Assembly (NCBI RefSeq): GCF_046105845.1
Contig: NZ_CP151004.1
Direction: 5' to 3' (one strand)
From: Escherichia coli
GTDB lineage: Bacteria > Pseudomonadota > Gammaproteobacteria > Enterobacterales > Enterobacteriaceae
DNA length: 64,000 nucleotides
Shown: in pieces, positions 7,424 through 62,444 of the stretch
Layout: each line of letters starts with the position of its first letter
How positions within the stretch are numbered: the stretch's first letter is position 1
Position numbers and translations under genes: made by a program
The notes under the pieces: generated by a model
Told to the model about the DNA's origin: nothing
Seen by the model: the letters and a program-made list of their open reading frames with translations, nothing else
Database searches by the model: none

Positions 7424-7836
7424 GATCGTATGTGCCTTTATGATTGGTCTGTAGATAGTGTAGAGCAGAAAAGAAAAGGTGGAGTCAGAACAGGATGAAA
7501 GTCTGAGGATAAAAAGTCAGTTCAAGTATGGGGGATTCAGTGGTTACCACCAGGAGCTTGCAATGGGAACCGCGAATATTAACGGTAGCCACCGATAAAT
7601 TTCAAAAAAGAGCATATGCCTAATATTCAACCAAACAGTGGCATCTTAAATATACTATTCCAAATATATTAAAGCCCCATGGAGTTACTTGGAAAGGGCC
7701 TTCATGTCTGTAATTCCTACTTATGTAGGAAATGTTGTACAGAACATTTATTATAATCCTATTCAAATATAATAATCAGCCATTATTATATTTAAACACT
7801 AGAGAGTGTCGTTGGTATTTAATGGGGGAAGGTGAG

Positions 7837-8154: not shown

Positions 8155-8312
8155 GAATATTTTTTGGTAAGCGTCAAACATGCGCGTTCTGGTTGTGCTT
8201 AGCCGGAACCAGTGCGAGCACGATGCCGTTACGTGAAAGGCATCGTGCTATGAAGGGAGATTCTATCGATGTGGTCAATGGAAGACGGTGACCAGGGATA
8301 GGGCTTATGCAT

Positions 8313-8399
8313 AAAAAATAAGCCCGTGTAAGGGAGATTACACAGGCTAAGGAGGTGGTTCCTGGTACAGCTAGCATTTTATGGGTTATGTTTTTCAGC
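8313..8399 (-). ncRNA. cyaR: CyaR (RyeE) Hfq-dependent small RNA
   Basis: Minus-strand sequence GCTGAAAAACATAACCCATAAAATGCTAGCTGTACCAGGAACCACCTCCTTAGCCTGTGTAATCTCCCTTACACGGGCTTATTTTTT matches my recollection of CyaR, including the terminator hairpin (CCCTTACACGGGC) plus U-tract; located downstream of yegQ as in K-12. Confidence 0.85.
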
Positions 8400-8433
8400 G
8401 AAACGGATGATAACCTTAATAAATGCAGCTGTA

Positions 8434-11227: not shown

Positions 11228-12627
11228 ACTTCTCTCTGTAAATCCCGTTCCAGCGGTAACTCTACTGTAATGCTTACCCCGCCAAAAGGCGAATGGGTAG
11301 CAATAATGCGGCCATTATGTGCTTCAACAATGTTCAGGCAAATCGCCAGCCCCAGCCCGGAACCGCCGCTGGCACGGTTGCGGGAGCCTTCGGTGCGATA
11401 AAAACGTTCAAACAATTTTTGTAGTTGATCGTCACTGACACCCGGCGCGCTGTCGGCAAAGGTCAGGCGCACCGTTTTGTCGTGCTGCTCGGCAGAGATT
11501 TTCAGGCTGCCGCCGCTGTCAGTGTAGCGCAGGCTGTTTTCCAGTAAGTTATTGAATAACTGCATTAAACGGTCGCGATCGCCAAATACGGTAATACTGT
11601 CTGGCAGGGAAAATTGCAGTTTCAGGCCACGGCTGGCGAATCGTTCGCGAAATGCGCCGCCCGCCACTTCCAGCAGTGGGATCAAATCTACTGATGCTTT
11701 TTGATAGGCGAGAGCGCCTTCATCAGACATCGACAACTGATGAAGATCGTCAACCAGTTTGGTCAGTGTACCGACCTCCGCCTGTAAAGACGCCACCGTC
11801 TCCGGCGTGAATTTGCGCACGCCATCCTGAATGGCTTCCAGTTCACCGCGCAGCACCGCTAATGGCGTACGCAGTTCGTGAGAAATATCGGCCATAAAAT
11901 CGCGCCGCATTTGCTGGTTTTTCTCCAGCGTGCTGGCGAGCTGGTTGAAGTCCTGCGCCAGTTTGCCCAGTTCATCTTCACTGGTGGGCGTCACGCGGGT
12001 TGTGAAATCGCCCGCCGCCAGTTTGTGCGTGCCGTCCACCAGCCGTTTGACCGGGGCCAACAGACCACGCGCCAGCAGAAAGGTGGCGAGCGCCGCGAGT
12101 AACGTTGCCAGGGCGACAATCAGCCAGCTGGTTTGCCGCTGTTGTTTATCGAAATTGATATCAGTATTGCGGGTCAGTCGCTCAACAGGGGAGGCAATCA
12201 CCGCACCCACTTCCGCACCGTTGACCAGAATGGGTCGCCGTGTACCGTCAGGTGGAATCGGCGCTCGCGGACCAACCAGCACTTTGTTGTTTTGATCGAC
12301 CACCCAGAATTGAGTACGCCAGCCGTGCGGTGGCATACCCGGGCCGGGTTTATCTTCCGAATTATCGTGTTCAAATGAACGCAGGATCTGAAAGACAAAG
12401 CGATCATTGTTGCGCAGGAAGCGCCAGTTGCCATGCTGCGCATACTGCTCGCCAAGCGCATCACTTAACAGTTGTAATCGCTGTTCATTACCATGCTTGA
12501 TGTAATCAATAAAGCCACGCTCAAAACTGATACGCACCGCCCAGTGCATACTGATCAGCAAGACAATGCAGGTGGCGAAAATCGCCAGAAACAGTTTGCC
12601 AGTAATACCGGGTCGCCAGAACTTCAT
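11224..12627 (-). CDS. baeS: Envelope-stress sensor histidine kinase BaeS
   Basis: 467-aa ORF with two TM segments, HAMP, H-box (ISHELRTPL) and HATPase motifs; overlaps baeR start. Confidence 0.93.
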
Positions 12628-21719: not shown

Positions 21720-21859
21720 CGGGAAAGCCCCTCCCGAGGAAGGGGCCATAAATAAGGAAAGGGTCATGATGAAGCTACTCATCATCGTGGTGCTCTTAGT
21801 CATTAGCTGGCCAGCTTACTAAGACTACCAGGGCGGGGGAAACCCCGCTCTACCCTCAC
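21720..21859 (-). ncRNA. Sib-family antisense sRNA (antitoxin) copy 1, approximate boundaries
   Basis: Minus-strand promoter: -35 TTGACA (rc of 21888-21893), 17-bp spacer, -10 TACTTT (rc of 21865-21870). Minus-strand terminator hairpin (rc of 21727-21746) plus U-rich tract. Fully overlaps the ibs ORF in antisense. Confidence 0.6.
21766..21822 (+). CDS. Ibs-family type I toxin peptide, copy 1 (MMKLLIIVVLLVISWPAY)
   Basis: 18-codon ORF with strong SD (aaggaaaggg) 6 nt upstream; hydrophobic single-TM peptide characteristic of Ibs toxins. The ibsA/ibsB/extra-copy assignment is uncertain. Confidence 0.8.
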   Translation: MMKLLIIVVLLVISWPAY

Positions 21860-22047
21860 TCCTGAAAGTATGCCTTCACGATAAGATTGTCAATCTGCAG
21901 GCTTTGCAGTCTGCGATCCTGCCAGCAAATATTCTTTGCGAGACGTTACGCAATAATCACACTGGAAACTATTTTATCCGCAAGTCAGCGATAGACTGCA
22001 TTCAGGGCGAAAGGAGGTAAGCCGACGATTTCAGCGGGACGCTGAAA

Positions 22048-22187
22048 CGGGAAAGCCCCTCCCGAGGAAGGGGCCTTAAATAAGGAAAGGGTCATGATGA
22101 AGATACTCATCATCGTGGTGCTCTTAGTGATTAGCTACCCAGCATACTAAGACTACCAGGGCGGGGGAAACCCCGCTCTACCCTCAC
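22048..22187 (-). ncRNA. Sib-family antisense sRNA (antitoxin) copy 2, approximate boundaries
   Basis: Same promoter (TTGACA-17-TAATTT) and terminator architecture as copy 1, shifted by one repeat unit. Confidence 0.55.
22094..22150 (+). CDS. Ibs-family type I toxin peptide, copy 2 (MMKILIIVVLLVISYPAY)
   Basis: Same architecture as copy 1 in the second repeat unit. Confidence 0.8.
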   Translation: MMKILIIVVLLVISYPAY

Positions 22188-22376
22188 TCCTGAAATTATG
22201 CCTTCACGATAAGATTGTCAATCCGCAGGCTTTGCAGTCTGCGATCCTGCCAGCAAATATTCTTTGCGAGTCGTTACGCAATAATCACAGAGGAAACTAT
22301 TTTATTCACGCGTTAGCGATAGACTGCATTCAGGGCGAAAGGAGGTAAGCCGACGATTTCAGCGGGACGCTGAAAC

Positions 22377-22520
22377 GGGAAACCCTCTCCCGGAGAAGAG
22401 GGCTTTTAATAAGGAAAGGGTTATGATGAAGCACGTCATCATACTGGTGATACTCTTAGTGATTAGCTTCCAGGCTTACTAAGAACACCAGGGGGAGGGG
22501 GAAACCTCTCCCTAACCCTC
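22377..22520 (-). ncRNA. Sib-family antisense sRNA (antitoxin) copy 3, approximate boundaries
   Basis: Minus-strand TTGACA (rc of 22551-22556), 17-bp spacer, TAATTT; terminator-like hairpin near 22385-22405. Confidence 0.55.
22423..22482 (+). CDS. Ibs-family type I toxin peptide, copy 3 (MMKHVIILVILLVISFQAY)
   Basis: 19-codon ORF in the third repeat unit with SD aaggaaaggg. Confidence 0.8.
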   Translation: MMKHVIILVILLVISFQAY

Positions 22521-22702
22521 ACTCCTGAAATTATGTCACTCCGCCCTTAGTGTCAATCGACGGCTCTCCGTTCTTGCGAGGCGAATAGCAAAATTTTCTG
22601 CGCCGCCGGGCCTAATTCTGAAAGTTTCTTCGTTTGCTCTTATTTCATTATTGCAATCGGTATGATACCGGACCTCGATAATTCTCTAAGAAAGGATTTC
22701 TT

Positions 22703-23362: not shown

Positions 23363-24120
23363 GCTGGCGTCTGGTCTATGCATCAGCTGTTGGAACGTCG
23401 CACATCAGCGCGGACTTGCCTTGCCAGGATGCCTGCCAGATGCAGGTTGCCTGGCTAAATGACCAGCAGCCATTATTGACGGTATTTGTCGCTGATGGCG
23501 CAGGCAGTGTCTCGCAGGGTGGCGAAGGCGCGATGCTCGCCGTCAATGAAGCGATGGCTTATATGTCGCAAAAAGTGCAGGGTGGGGAATTGGGGCTTAA
23601 TGATGTCCTCGCCACGGATATTGTGCTGACTATTCGTCAGCGACTTTTTGCCGAGGCAGAGGCCAAAGAATTAGCGGTTCGCGATTTTGCCTGCACATTT
23701 CTGGGACTGATTTCATCGCCTGACGGCACCTTGATTATGCAGATTGGCGATGGCGGCATGGTGGTAGATTTGGGTCACGGTCTGCAATTGCCTCTCACGC
23801 CGATGGTGGGTGAATATGCCAATATGACGCACTTCATTACCGACGAAGATGCCGTTTCCAGACTGGAAACTTTCACCAGCACTGGGCGTGCGCACAAAGT
23901 TGCAGCATTTACGGATGGTATCCAGCGACTGGCGTTAAATATGCTGGATAATTCTCCTTATGTGCCTTTCTTTACCCCGTTTTTCAATGGACTGGCGTCA
24001 GCAACGCAGGAACAATTCGATTTATTACCTGAATTGTTAAAGCAGTTTTTGTCCAGCCCGGCGGTAAACGAGCGTACGGATGATGATAAAACGTTGGCAC
24101 TGGCGCTGTGGGCAGAGTGA
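23359..24120 (+). CDS. yegK: PP2C-like Ser/Thr protein phosphatase
   Basis: 253-aa ORF with PP2C-like Asp/Gly-rich motifs ([17 protein letters not shown]); translationally coupled to yegL. Confidence 0.85.
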
Positions 24121-24129
24121 GTTTCTCAT

Positions 24130-24157
24130 GGCGGTTGAAGACAACAATTCAACCGCC
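24130..24157. terminator. Perfect 10-bp stem-loop (ggcggttgaa/ttcaaccgcc) between convergent yegK and yegJ; probable bidirectional terminator
   Basis: Seen in sequence; 8-nt loop, T/A-rich flanks. Confidence 0.5.
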
Positions 24158-24184
24158 AGTTTAAACAATAAATATAACGGCTGA

Positions 24185-24646
24185 TTAGCGAACTAATTTT
24201 GCTCTTAGCTCGTCGGCTTCTTCTTTTGGATAGGTGACCAATAAAGGATCAATGGTATAACCGCCGTAAATTTTATCCCCGCGTGTATACATCCAGTCTG
24301 AAATATCTTCTTTCTTGATTTTCCACTCCTGGCCATATTCTACGTTTGTAACAATACCAGGGTCATTGCTAATTACGCCAATAAACATGCCGTTAGAATA
24401 AGTGACATCCGTAAGCCAGAAATGCTCGGTTCTTCCGTGATCGGTTATCGGGGCTTTGACTGCGAAAGTATCGGCATCTTTTTTATTCATAACCTCGATG
24501 AATTTATCGGTTTCTTTCCGCGCATGTTGAATGGCGTCAGACATCGCTTGTTTATCATAACCTCCCGTCACTAACGTATCCGAAACTTCACTAAAGCCCG
24601 CGGTAGTAAAAAATAGCAGACTCAACATAAGTAATATCTTTTTCAT
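24185..24646 (-). CDS. yegJ: Secreted/periplasmic protein of unknown function (DUF2314-like)
   Basis: 153-aa ORF with N-terminal signal peptide (MKKILLMLSLLFFTTAGFS); position between yegK and yegI. Confidence 0.8.
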   Translation of the reverse strand: MKKILLMLSLLFFTTAGFSEVSDTLVTGGYDKQAMSDAIQHARKETDKFIEVMNKKDADTFAVKAPITDHGRTEHFWLTDVTYSNGMFIGVISNDPGIVTNVEYGQEWKIKKEDISDWMYTRGDKIYGGYTIDPLLVTYPKEEADELRAKLVR

Positions 24647-24846
24647 CTTTTCTCCAGAATCCCTGTGTAGTAAAAGTTAGCAAAAAACCTGTGGAAGTGA
24701 ATCATTATCAGGTTGGAATTGAATTGTATCCTGATGAAATTGCATTATCATTTTTATTCTTGAGTGGGACTCTTCCAATATGGAAATAATTATAATGGGC
24801 AGTGTTATTATTCATTAAAATATAATATGACTGCCCTTGAAACATT

Positions 24847-26793
24847 ATGAAGACAAATATAAAAGTATTTACATCGACAAGTGAATTGACCACTCTCGGC
24901 CGTGAACTGGGCAAAGGTGGCGAAGGCGCGGTTTATGATATCGAGGAGTTTGTCGATAGCGTCGCTAAGATTTATCACACGCCGCCACCCGCCTTAAAAC
25001 AGGACAAACTTGCCTTTATGGCTGCGACAGCTGACGCGCAGTTGTTGAATTATGTCGCCTGGCCGCAGGCAACGCTTCACGGTGGACGAGGCGGAAAGGT
25101 TATCGGTTTTATGATGCCAAAAGTTTCTGGTAAAGAACCGATTCATATGATCTATAGCCCGGCACATCGTCGCCAGAGTTACCCTCATTGTGCGTGGGAT
25201 TTTCTACTCTATGTTGCGCGCAATATTGCTTCATCTTTTGCTACGATTCACGAGCACGGGCACGTCGTGGGTGACGTAAACCAGAACAGCTTTATGGTGG
25301 GCCGTGACAGCAAAGTGGTGTTGATTGATAGCGACTCCTTTCAGATTAACGCCAATGGCACGCTGCATTTATGCGAAGTCGGCGTGTCGCATTTTACGCC
25401 GCCAGAGCTGCAAACCTTGCCATCATTTGTCGGCTTTGAACGCACCGCGAATCACGATAATTTTGGCCTTGCGTTGCTGATTTTTCACGTCTTGTTTGGT
25501 GGGCGGCATCCTTATTCCGGTGTACCGCTTATCTCTGATGCGGGTAATGCACTGGAGACGGATATTGCCCATTTCCGTTATGCCTACGCGTCAGATAATC
25601 AGCGACGTGGTTTAAAACCGCCGCCACGATCTATTCCGCTGTCGATGTTACCGGGTGATGTTGAAGCCATGTTTCAGCAGGCATTCACGGAAAGTGGCGT
25701 GGCAACCGGGCGTCCGACGGCAAAAGCGTGGGTAGCGGCACTTGATTTACTACGCCAACAGTTAAAGAAATGTACCGTTTCGGCAATGCATGTTTACCCC
25801 GGTCATTTGACTGACTGCCCGTGGTGTGCGCTGGATAATCAAGGCGTTATCTATTTTATTGATCTCGGCGAAGAGGTCATTACCACCGGCGGTGATTTTG
25901 TGCTGGCGAAAGTCTGGGCAATGGTGATGGCGTCAGTAGCACCACCAGCATTGCAACTGCCATTACCCGATCATTTCCAGGCTGCTGGCAGGCCGCTTCC
26001 TTTAGGCCTGTTACGGCGTGAATACATCATTCTGATTGAGATCGCACTGTCAGCGTTATCGCTGTTGCTTTGCGGCCTTCAGACAGAACCGCGTTATATT
26101 ATTTTGGTTCCTGTGCTGGCGGCTATCTGGATTATTGGCAGCCTGACAAGCAAAGCGTACAAAGCAGAAATCCAGCAACGCCGTGAGGCGTTTAATCGTG
26201 CGAAAATGGACTATGACCATTTAGTCCGCCAGATCCAACAGTTGGGCGGGCTGGAAGGTTTTATCGCCAAACGGACGATGCTCGAAAAAATGAAGGACGA
26301 CATTCTTGGGTTACCGGAAGAAGAAAAGCGCGATCTGGCAGCATTTCAGGACACCGCAAGGGAACGGCAGAAGCAGAAGTTTCTGGAGGGATTTTTTATT
26401 GATGTTGCCTCTATTCCCGGCGTTGGCCCTGCGCGTAAAGCGGCGTTACGGTCCTTTGGTATTGAAACAGCGGCAGACGTTACCCGACGGAGCGTTAAGC
26501 AAGTTAAAGGTTTTGGTGATCATCTGACCCAGGCGGTTATCGACTGGAAAGCGAGTTGCGAACGCCGTTTTGTTTTCAGGCCGAACGAAGCGGTAACGCC
26601 TGCAGACAGACAAGCGGTAATGGCAAAAATGGCCGCCAAACGACATCGGCTGGAATCGGCGCTGACTGTCGGTGCGACAGAGTTGCAGCGATTCCGCCTT
26701 CATGCTCCAGCACGGACCATGCCGTTGATGGAACCGTTACGTCAGGCGGCAGAAAAACTGGCTCAGGCGCAGGCTGATTTAAGCCGTTGCTGA
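24847..26793 (+). CDS. yegI: Eukaryotic-like Ser/Thr protein kinase-fold membrane protein with C-terminal helix-hairpin-helix-like motif
   Basis: 648-aa ORF: N-terminal Gly-rich loop (LGKGGEGAVY), VAKIYH lysine, atypical catalytic loop (HVVGDVNQNS) and DSDSF in place of DFG; two hydrophobic helices (~res 390-430); C-terminal IPGVGPARKAALRSFGIETAADV resembles an HhH motif. Confidence 0.85.
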   Translation: MKTNIKVFTSTSELTTLGRELGKGGEGAVYDIEEFVDSVAKIYHTPPPALKQDKLAFMAATADAQLLNYVAWPQATLHGGRGGKVIGFMMPKVSGKEPIHMIYSPAHRRQSYPHCAWDFLLYVARNIASSFATIHEHGHVVGDVNQNSFMVGRDSKVVLIDSDSFQINANGTLHLCEVGVSHFTPPELQTLPSFVGFERTANHDNFGLALLIFHVLFGGRHPYSGVPLISDAGNALETDIAHFRYAYASDNQRRGLKPPPRSIPLSMLPGDVEAMFQQAFTESGVATGRPTAKAWVAALDLLRQQLKKCTVSAMHVYPGHLTDCPWCALDNQGVIYFIDLGEEVITTGGDFVLAKVWAMVMASVAPPALQLPLPDHFQAAGRPLPLGLLRREYIILIEIALSALSLLLCGLQTEPRYIILVPVLAAIWIIGSLTSKAYKAEIQQRREAFNRAKMDYDHLVRQIQQLGGLEGFIAKRTMLEKMKDDILGLPEEEKRDLAAFQDTARERQKQKFLEGFFIDVASIPGVGPARKAALRSFGIETAADVTRRSVKQVKGFGDHLTQAVIDWKASCERRFVFRPNEAVTPADRQAVMAKMAAKRHRLESALTVGATELQRFRLHAPARTMPLMEPLRQAAEKLAQAQADLSRC

Positions 26794-26805
26794 GCCAGTT
26801 TTCAA

Positions 26806-38327: not shown

Positions 38328-38366
38328 CAGTGTATTGGTAGCTAAAAAGCCAGGGGCGGTAGCGTG
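38328..38366 (+). promoter_or_regulatory. JUMPStart element with ops site (GGCGGTAGCGTG at 38355-38366) in the wza 5' leader; RfaH recruitment site
   Basis: Seen in sequence: cagtgtattggtagctaaaaagccaggggcggtagcgtg. The ops core matches GGCGGTAGnnTG exactly, and the 3' end of the element is shared with the rfb JUMPStart at 62406-62444. Confidence 0.8.
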
Positions 38367-50046: not shown

Positions 50047-51266
50047 AAATACTGGTCTACGGCATTAACTACTCGCCGGAGTTAACCGGCATCGGCAAAT
50101 ACACCGGAGAGATGGTGGAATGGCTTGCGGCACAAGGTCATGAGGTGCGGGTCATTACCGCACCGCCTTACTACCCGCAGTGGCAGGTGGGCGAGAACTA
50201 TTCCGCCTGGCGGTACAAACGAGAAGAGGGGGCCGCCACGGTGTGGCGCTGCCCGCTGTACGTGCCAAAACAGCCAAGCACCCTGAAACGCCTGTTGCAT
50301 CTCGGCAGTTTTGCCGCCAGCAGTTTCTTTCCTCTGATGGCGCAACGTCGCTGGAAGCCGGATCGCATTATCGGCGTGGTGCCAACGCTGTTTTGCACGC
50401 CGGGAATGCGCCTGCTGGCGAAACTCTCTGGTGCGCGTACCGTGCTGCATATTCAGGATTACGAAGTGGACGCCATGCTGGGGCTGGGCCTTGCCGGAAA
50501 AGGCAAAGGCGGCAAAGTGGCACATCTGGCGACGGCGTTCGAACGTAGCGGACTGCATAACGTTGATAACGTCTCCACGATTTCGCGTTCGATGATGAAT
50601 AAAGCCATCGAAAAAGGCGTGGCGGCGGAAAATGTCATCTTCTTCCCCAACTGGTCGGAAATTGCCCGTTTTCAGCATGTCGCAGAGGCCGATGTTGATG
50701 CCCTTCGTAACCAGCTTGGCCTGCCGGATAACAAAAAAATCATTCTTTACTCCGGCAATATTGGTGAAAAGCAGGGGCTGGAAAACGTTATTGAAGCTGC
50801 CGATCGCCTGCGTGATGAACCGCTGATTTTTGCCATTGTCGGGCAGGGCGGCGGCAAAGCGCGGCTGGAAAAAATGGCGCAGCAGCGTGGACTGCACAAC
50901 ATGCAATTTTTTCCGCTGCAATCGTATGACGCTTTACCCGCACTGCTGAAGATGGGCGATTGCCATCTGGTAGTGCAAAAACGCGGCGCGGCAGATGCCG
51001 TATTGCCGTCGAAACTGACCAATATTCTGGCGGTAGGTGGTAACGCGGTGATTACCGCAGAGGCCCACACAGAACTGGGGCAGCTTTGCGAAACCTTTCC
51101 GGGCATTGCGGTTTGCGTAGAACCGGAATCGGTCGAGGCGCTGGTTGCGGGGATCCGTCAGGCGCTCCTGCTGCCCAAACACAACACGGTGGCACGTGAA
51201 TATGCCGAACGCACGCTCGATAAAGAGAACGTGTTACGTCAATTTATAAATGATATTCGGGGATAA
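50043..51266 (+). CDS. wcaI: Colanic acid biosynthesis glycosyltransferase (GT1/GT4)
   Basis: 407-aa ORF. Confidence 0.9.
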
Positions 51267-52705: not shown

Positions 52706-52806
52706 CAGTTGCATAATCAACCGGATTAATTCTTCGGTAAATAACGACAAAAACAAAATTGGCCGCTTCGGTCAGGGCCAACTATTGCCTGAAAAAGGGT
52801 AACGAT

Positions 52807-62405: not shown

Positions 62406-62444
62406 CAGTGCTCTGGTAGCTGTAAAGCCAGGGGCGGTAGCGTG
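62406..62444 (+). promoter_or_regulatory. JUMPStart element with ops site (GGCGGTAGCGTG at 62433-62444) in the rfb operon leader
   Basis: Seen in sequence: cagtgctctggtagctgtaaagccaggggcggtagcgtg; matches the JUMPStart consensus as I recall it, and the ops core is exact. Confidence 0.85.

Follow-up and report, generated by a model that had tools for sequence, protein, structure and literature searches.

An imperfect palindrome in the promoter/leader region of yegI within the yegJ accessory segment of Escherichia coli

The spacer between the divergent genes yegJ and yegI of Escherichia coli harbours an imperfect palindrome of 40 bp, which is genuine but represents an ordinary kind of element, namely an inverted repeat of the promoter/leader type. 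We tentatively favour a reading in which yegI is transcribed from a promoter of the form TTGAGT-N18/19-AATAAT, with the repeat forming a stem-loop at the 5' terminus of a leader of ~50 nt. The palindrome was resolved by a repeat finder into two arms of 15 nt, complementary at 13/15 positions, around a loop of 10 nt (Table 1). From the outside inwards it is built of a GC-rich stem of 7 bp, a 2x2 internal loop, an AT stem of 6 bp and the 10-nt loop. In the window (the whole stretch of 64,000 nt that was analysed) its surroundings read ...ATAATTATAATGGGCAGTGTTATTATTCATTAAAATATAATATGACTGCCCTTGAAACATTATGAAG....

The initial annotation had described the element as a 7-bp inverted repeat. A perfect 7-bp repeat with a 26-nt spacer does indeed exist, its two heptamers being present and perfectly complementary, but the dyad is really longer, with 15-nt arms, and both intervals had been placed one base off (gggcagt at 24798-24804 and actgccc at 24829-24835; the true positions are listed in Table 1). 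The coordinates of the TATAAT motif were right in the window sequence, as was its distance of 20 nt to the ATG of yegI at 24847. A further copy of TATAAT is found at 24791-24796.

Table 1. Features of the yegJ-yegI region, in window coordinates.
Feature	Position	Strand	Remarks
Accessory segment, 785 bp	24113..24897	.	50 bp stands in its place in yegJ-less E. coli
yegJ, DUF2314 / YegJ family, 153 aa	24185..24646	-	divergent from yegI
Candidate yegJ promoter, ATGATA-17-TACAAT	24751->24723	-	back to back with TTGAGT
Candidate yegI promoter, TTGAGT (24760-24765) - 19 bp - AATAAT (24785-24790)	24760..24790	+	sigma-70-like, predicted
Alternative yegI promoter, TGGGCA (24796-24801) - 19 bp - TATAAT (24821-24826)		+	10/12; predicted start ~24833, inside right arm
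Left arm, GGGCAGT GT TATTAT	24797..24811	+	outer 7 nt, 24797-24803, are the gggcagt of the initial annotation
Loop, TCATTAAAAT, 10 nt	24812..24821	+	24817 is A or G across alleles
TATAAT, perfect	24821..24826	+	invariant across all alleles
Right arm, ATAATA TG ACTGCCC	24822..24836	+	outer 7 nt, 24830-24836, are the actgccc of the initial annotation
yegI, Ser/Thr protein kinase YegI, 648 aa	24847..26793	+	first 17 codons in accessory segment

The 40-bp palindrome is real and moderately unusual. In fact, the 7-bp perfect repeat with its 26-nt spacer is by itself commonplace and within chance. Perfect 7-bp inverted repeats with a spacer of 3-30 nt number 232 in the window and 133 +/- 18 in simulated first-order Markov sequences, and at least one is expected with P=0.45 in 200 bp of the composition of the spacer. 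The longer dyad is rarer. Repeats of 13/15 quality gave 12 hits at 6 loci in the 64 kb, against 1.6 hits expected, and the probability of finding one in a 200-bp spacer of matching composition is about P=0.016. Folded in isolation as RNA, the 40-nt hairpin reaches -15.1 kcal/mol (z=-4.4, with 0/200 shuffles equally good), and as DNA -8.0 kcal/mol (z=-3.9). A chance origin stays possible, since the initial annotation arose from a survey of the whole window. The other five loci with 15-nt arms and at least 13 matches are at 7760-7800, 8216-8250, 11982-12041, 26752-26804 and 50364-50410; the repeat at 26752 sits at the convergent junction of yegI and yegD, and that at 8216 adjoins CyaR (8316-8401).

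The locus corresponds to the yegL-pphC / yegJ / yegI / yegD region of E. coli, and the spacer that houses the palindrome measures 200 bp and is AT-rich (28-35% GC). The form that carries yegJ was found in 1901 of the 5415 complete E. coli genomes (~35%), whereas in the remaining E. coli pphC and yegI overlap by ATGA (10.1101/819920, 10.1101/303594, PMC13232886). An alignment with two yegJ-less strains revealed that the polymorphism is a segment replacement and not a clean insertion, as the common sequence ends at 24112 and restarts at 24898. Therefore, the accessory segment includes codons 1-17 of yegI (MKTNIKVFTSTSELTTL) as well as the final two of pphC. Between these pphC codons with their stop and the yegI codons, the 785 bp hold a hairpin at 24130-24157, yegJ and the AT-rich spacer that includes the inverted repeat. 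The corresponding N-terminus of YegI in the yegJ-less strains is MKPTLYTATGECVTP, recognisably related to the present one and strongly diverged. The hairpin near the left end, situated between the convergent pphC and yegJ, is perfect over 10 bp (GGCGGTTGAA-N8-TTCAACCGCC) and has no obvious U-tract on either side. In addition, the left junction of the segment (24109-24118) and the left arm of the repeat (24796-24805) both carry TGGGCAG[A/T]GT, which amounts to a 9/10 direct repeat flanking yegJ.

It is this setting, an accessory segment that uncouples yegI from pphC, that makes the palindrome somewhat interesting. YegI and PphC constitute a eukaryote-like Ser/Thr kinase/phosphatase pair of E. 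coli, and because the yegJ segment parts the two genes in about one third of the strains, yegI there requires expression signals of its own. Were both the stem-loop and the conserved promoter real, they would provide a concrete handle on how and when yegI is expressed in yegJ-containing strains such as K-12; were they not, the element would be an ordinary promoter-region palindrome in H-NS-silenced DNA. The K-12 spacer has been reported to bind the RNA polymerase sigma-70 (RpoD) holoenzyme and H-NS in vitro, by genomic SELEX (PMC3946193), and under standard conditions yegI, yegJ and pphC are expressed at barely detectable levels (10.1101/819920, 10.1101/303594, PMC13232886). The only other regulatory connection of yegI or yegJ that we found in the literature is a Cra site inside yegI.

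The spacer varies to an unusual degree, with 85-88% identity between the K-12 type and the window, and sampling of the identity classes yielded four forms of the repeat. Allele A, that of the window, is present in ~349 genomes and serves as reference (GGGCAGT GT TATTAT ... ATAATA TG ACTGCCC). Allele B (~399 genomes) has TT GCTGCCC in the right arm, which turns a U:A pair into U.G and the GxG mismatch into G.U. Allele C, the K-12 form, is the commonest (~1158 of 1906 genomes) and reads GGTTAGTT GT TATTAT ... ATAATA T AACTACCC. Compared to allele A it shows a compensatory double change (C24800:G24833 to U:A), a T insertion together with G24829->A by which one pair is gained, and the conversion of the G24799:C pair to a UxC mismatch by which one is broken. 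Allele D (GGGAAGT) is rare, occurs in strain LR-28 and has one pair broken. The calculated energies of the 40/41-mers on the plus and minus strand are -15.1 and -13.3 kcal/mol for allele A, -15.3 and -11.2 for B, -7.7 and -4.6 for C, and -8.4 and -6.6 for D. The shape of the predicted fold is identical in all four, and in every allele the plus-strand fold is the more stable one. Moreover, the changes in allele B are neutral for plus-strand RNA only, as they give rise to A.C mismatches on the minus strand.

Various other observations concern the same sequences. In strain LR-28 (L009) the stem-breaking C->A change in the left arm coincides with a shortened yegJ annotation (128 aa), and this allele may be decaying. 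The yegJ-yegI spacer is interrupted by IS1 in two genomes (L005, NZ_CP168035; L020, NZ_CP062871). In L020 the right arm directly adjoins the end of IS1 (GCTGCCC|GGTAATGACTCC), which parts the repeat from yegI.

The location of the repeat near the promoter, as put forward in the initial annotation, was borne out: every sigma-70-like candidate promoter for yegI falls on the repeat or just upstream of it. The candidate TTGAGT/AATAAT, with a spacing of 18 bp, is the sole plus-strand sigma-70-like site of at least 9/12 in the K-12 allele. The spacing is 18 bp in K-12, in B and in some A alleles, and 19 bp in the window, which is unfavourable for this promoter. Both hexamers are invariant in 12/12 sequences, whereas the stretch between them carries 6 differences (5 substitutions and a 1-bp indel); conserved hexamers around a drifting spacer form the pattern that a used promoter would show. 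The predicted start, 7 nt past the -10 hexamer, is G24797, the first base of the repeat (in K-12 the counterpart is G3148 of L002). The alternative promoter TGGGCA/TATAAT, an equally good candidate in the window allele, has a counterpart in K-12 with 20-bp spacing and a poorer -35. A further promoter, TTGTTA-18-TATAAC, was predicted from the sequence inside the repeat of K-12 (Shimada et al. 2014, PMC3946193), the -10 of which reads TATGAC in allele A and TATTGC in allele B. For yegJ, the hexamers of the candidate promoter are the same as those given for K-12 in that study (Shimada et al. 2014, PMC3946193), and because this candidate lies downstream of the repeat, the yegJ mRNA would exclude it. 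The Cappable-seq supplements contain no entries for yegI or yegJ and Srinivasan 2015 nothing on either, so that no experimental start site was found in these sources.

The yegJ side of the spacer contains some repeats as well. There is a second palindrome at 24707-24735 (ATCAGGTTGGAATT / AATTGTATCCTGAT), the 14-nt arms of which are 79% complementary and separated by 1 nt. It overlaps with the -10 of the yegJ promoter candidate, and its ATCAGG/CCTGAT ends are kept in K-12. The sequence CATTATCA constitutes a direct repeat, with two copies 40 bp apart (24697-24710 and 24743-24750). Within this region, GAATCATTATC presumably resembles the 3' half of the Fur-box consensus.

In the reading that we prefer, yegI transcription would be driven by the sigma-70-type promoter at 24760-24790 and would start at or within 1-2 bases of G24797. 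The repeat would then give a stem-loop at the very 5' end of a leader of ~50 nt, leaving 10 nt between its last base and the AUG. A stem-loop at the 5' terminus is known to impede the RppH- and RNase E-dependent attack on the 5' end in E. coli mRNA decay, and the yegI stem-loop would be expected to hinder 5'-end-dependent decay by RppH / RNase E likewise. It could also set a low rate of yegI translation. A structure that ends at -11 lies within the 30S footprint, and neither the stem nor the stretch 24830-24846 contains a Shine-Dalgarno-like sequence; because the stem-loop would be situated inside the ribosome landing zone of a leader that lacks a Shine-Dalgarno sequence, it could keep translation low. 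The effects to be expected are thus on mRNA lifetime and low basal translation, and not on the accessibility of the start codon. We infer the start site, and likewise that the hairpin forms in vivo and that expression may be affected.

Folding of the predicted transcript is in line with this expectation, as the hairpin dominates the structure and leaves the AUG and the bases around it single-stranded in alleles A, B and C. An RNA hairpin in the leader, one of the possibilities raised in the initial annotation, agrees with the data: all alleles retain the fold, one pair is compensatory and G.U changes are tolerated on the plus strand only. The accompanying proposal that the hairpin sequesters the start region was not supported, given the unpaired AUG region in these three alleles and the stem without Shine-Dalgarno sequence. 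In allele A only, positions 24790-24796 can pair with AUUAUGA around the AUG, a pairing that is absent in the K-12 allele and would fall outside the transcript if the conserved promoter, with its start at ~24797, is used. We hold it distinctly unlikely that the full scenario applies, in which the yegJ segment uncoupled yegI from pphC while supplying its own promoter and a 5'-terminal stem-loop that is maintained by compensation and sets yegI mRNA stability or translation. If it did, the allelic hairpin strength (-15 vs -8 kcal/mol) would tune the dosage of the kinase between lineages.

A leader peptide encoded over the left arm was considered and rejected. In the K-12 allele (L002 3146-3202) an ORF of 18 codons (MVSCYYSLKYNITTREIL) begins with an ATG where the repeat starts, and its TGA overlaps the yegI ATG. 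The counterpart in the window allele (24780-24818) is in another frame, has 12 or 7 codons and stops in the loop. As it is not conserved between the window and K-12 alleles, the left-arm ORF is probably not a leader peptide.

A possible, if doubtful, alternative to the 5'-terminal stem-loop is that the repeat has no dedicated function, and is a quasi-palindrome that arose by chance or is maintained by mutation, in DNA that is AT-rich, horizontally acquired and silenced by H-NS. The AT-rich inner part would then be conserved for promoter or H-NS elements and not for the dyad. In 64 kb, chance alone would yield ~1.6 such repeats, and 6 loci were found; as the initial annotation arose from a scan of the whole window, it may plausibly include one chance case, although for this particular spacer the probability is P=0.016. 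The inner arms are of low complexity (TATTAT/ATAATA) in a region of 28-30% GC, whereas the two perfectly complementary GC-rich heptamers are less readily expected within 28% GC. The arms are no better conserved than the flanks and evolve as fast. Moreover, the stability of the hairpin is halved in the commonest allele, which in its context folds no better than shuffled sequence (z -0.9 to -1.2), and pairs are broken in two alleles. The statistics of covariation are weak, with one compensatory event and unimpressive shuffle and slide controls. Over the alleles, which fall in four classes only, 92.8% of the cells are paired, with 1 double-change and 1 wobble-change pair; 10 of the 14 stem pairs never vary and 2 are broken in some alleles. 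Absence of function would also agree with the fact that yegI is essentially silent in the laboratory (PMC13232886; 10.1101/303594). The double compensatory change, the G.U-compatible changes that favour one strand, and the predicted start that falls exactly at the base of the stem nevertheless argue against it.

We regard it as unlikely that the repeat acts at the level of the DNA, either as a dyad operator for some repressor or activator or as a structural component of the core promoter. A -35-like TGGGCA would in that case come from the left arm of the window allele and the TATAAT of the -10 from the inner portion of its right arm, and a protein bound there would control the access of RNA polymerase to yegI and possibly yegJ. 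The position of the dyad is suggestive in this respect, as it spans -35 to +1 of both TGGGCA-19-TATAAT (10/12) and TTGTTA-18-TATAAC of Shimada, and the spacer binds RNA polymerase and H-NS in vitro. In addition, the outer heptamers are 33 bp apart from centre to centre, which is ~three helical turns and would put them on one face of the helix. The differences between alleles A and C gather at 24769-24782, 24792-24802 and 24829-24843, with 24737-24768, 24783-24791 and 24803-24828 nearly invariant; the last stretch, the inner 26 nt of the repeat, is almost invariant among alleles that are 85% identical overall. However, the outer arms, the only sequence-specific part, are the most variable: relative to A, 5 positions differ in K-12 (4 substitutions and a 1-bp insertion) and 2 in allele B. 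The half-sites are unequal in allele B (GGGCAGT vs GGGCAGC) and in K-12 (GGTTAGT vs GGGTAGT), and the T insertion in K-12 alters their spacing. Moreover, the repeat is present once per genome, unlike a regulon site, the neighbourhood contains no transcription factor gene, and no report of a yegI or yegJ regulator was found in the literature. Of the operator that the initial annotation had offered as an alternative, the dyad at the promoter (13/15, overlapping candidate promoters) thus holds, whereas conservation of its half-sites among the alleles does not.

It is highly improbable that the hairpin acts on minus-strand RNA, as a terminator-like or processing hairpin of antisense transcripts that begin within the 5' end of yegI, or else as a portion of an extended yegJ leader: promoter-like sites are present on that strand at 24885->24856 and 24851->24822, and the hairpin of the window allele (-13.3 kcal/mol) is followed by the U-rich AUUAUAAUUAUUU, but there is no contiguous U-tract and no terminator-like site in the scan, the fold is weaker in every allele, allele B gains A.C mismatches, and transcription from the best candidate promoter of yegJ (24751->24723), downstream of the repeat, would leave the repeat outside the yegJ mRNA.

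The repeat matched none of the following classes of known elements. In a search of the whole window, no Rfam family exceeded its gathering threshold at the repeat, and a permissive search of 24000-25500 gave no more than two overlaps there, both at chance level (CRISPR-DR5 with 19.3 bits at a threshold of 40 and mir-2001 with 15.1 at a threshold of 74, both with E ~8). A scan for intrinsic terminators, defined by a GC-rich stem, a loop of 3-8 nt and a run of U directly after the stem, gave no hit on either strand in the window or the K-12 allele, the respective tails being UUGAAACAUU (+) and AUUAUAAUUAUUU (-). A dispersed repeat (REP/BIME, ERIC, MITE) or the end of a mobile element was rejected because the 86-nt region that surrounds it occurs in a single place per genome in 1906 genomes. 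Within the plasmid collection, matches were restricted to E. coli records of chromosomal type. An integron attC site was discarded as well: the repeat lies 150 bp upstream of the yegJ start and not at the 3' end of a cassette, and inspection revealed no RYYYAAC / GTTRRRY core sites.

No orthologous repeat was found outside E. coli in the species genomes and metagenomes that were searched. A scan of 100,044 species genomes on basis of YegJ returned only Superficieibacter electus, where yegJ follows a yegD-like gene, the similarity ends ~60 bp upstream of yegJ and the repeat is absent. The YegJ homologues in metagenomes (86-93% identity) correspond to the E. coli K-12-type sequence, and homologues of the YegI N-terminus outside E. 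coli are at most 71% identical. A metagenome scan with the conserved core of 25 nt recovered one E. coli contig and one unrelated, Bacteroidetes-like contig. The latter (L022 8274-8298) has the exact core (GTTATTATTCATTGAAATATAATAT) between an SDR-like and an acetyltransferase-like ORF, a match that we judge to be a chance AT-rich one.

Elsewhere in the window, the region 21751-22556 contains three ORFs for ibs toxins (21766-21822, 22094-22150 and 22423-22482), with a SIB antitoxin RNA opposite each; the K-12-like and strain 789 loci have two ibs copies. The Rfam matches in other parts of the window include two JUMPstart elements (38328-38366 and 62406-62444) and an algC RNA motif (52753-52802).

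The repeat can be compared with several known systems. Like Rho-independent terminators it has a stem-loop shape with a GC-rich stem base; unlike these, it has a 10-nt loop and a 2x2 internal loop, is followed by a U-tract on neither strand and lies upstream of a gene. In common with the operators of LacI, LexA or Fur it has a dyad that spans -35 to +1 of candidate promoters, here between divergent genes. It departs from them in its 15-nt arms with a 10-nt gap, its unconserved outer half-sites, its single copy and the lack of a cognate regulator encoded nearby, and no LexA or CRP pattern can be recognised in it by eye. Template-switch mutation in quasi-palindromes (the Ripley model) can produce concerted changes of the arms without selection, and the yegI repeat is similarly imperfect, with arms that change in concert between alleles. 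In contrast to the prediction of that model, some of the changes (U.G, G.U) are neutral only for the RNA of one strand. Finally, the hairpin in the 5'-UTR of ompA reportedly is a stabilising stem-loop at the 5' terminus of an E. coli mRNA (Emory, Bouvet and Belasco 1992). The yegI case differs from it in that the start is a predicted one, the K-12 hairpin is weak, the leader is devoid of a Shine-Dalgarno sequence and the occurrence of the element is limited to a single accessory segment in E. coli. As in the ompA type, the yegI hairpin is stable, is predicted at or within 1-2 bases of the 5' end, and lies upstream of the ribosome-binding region with the start codon unpaired.
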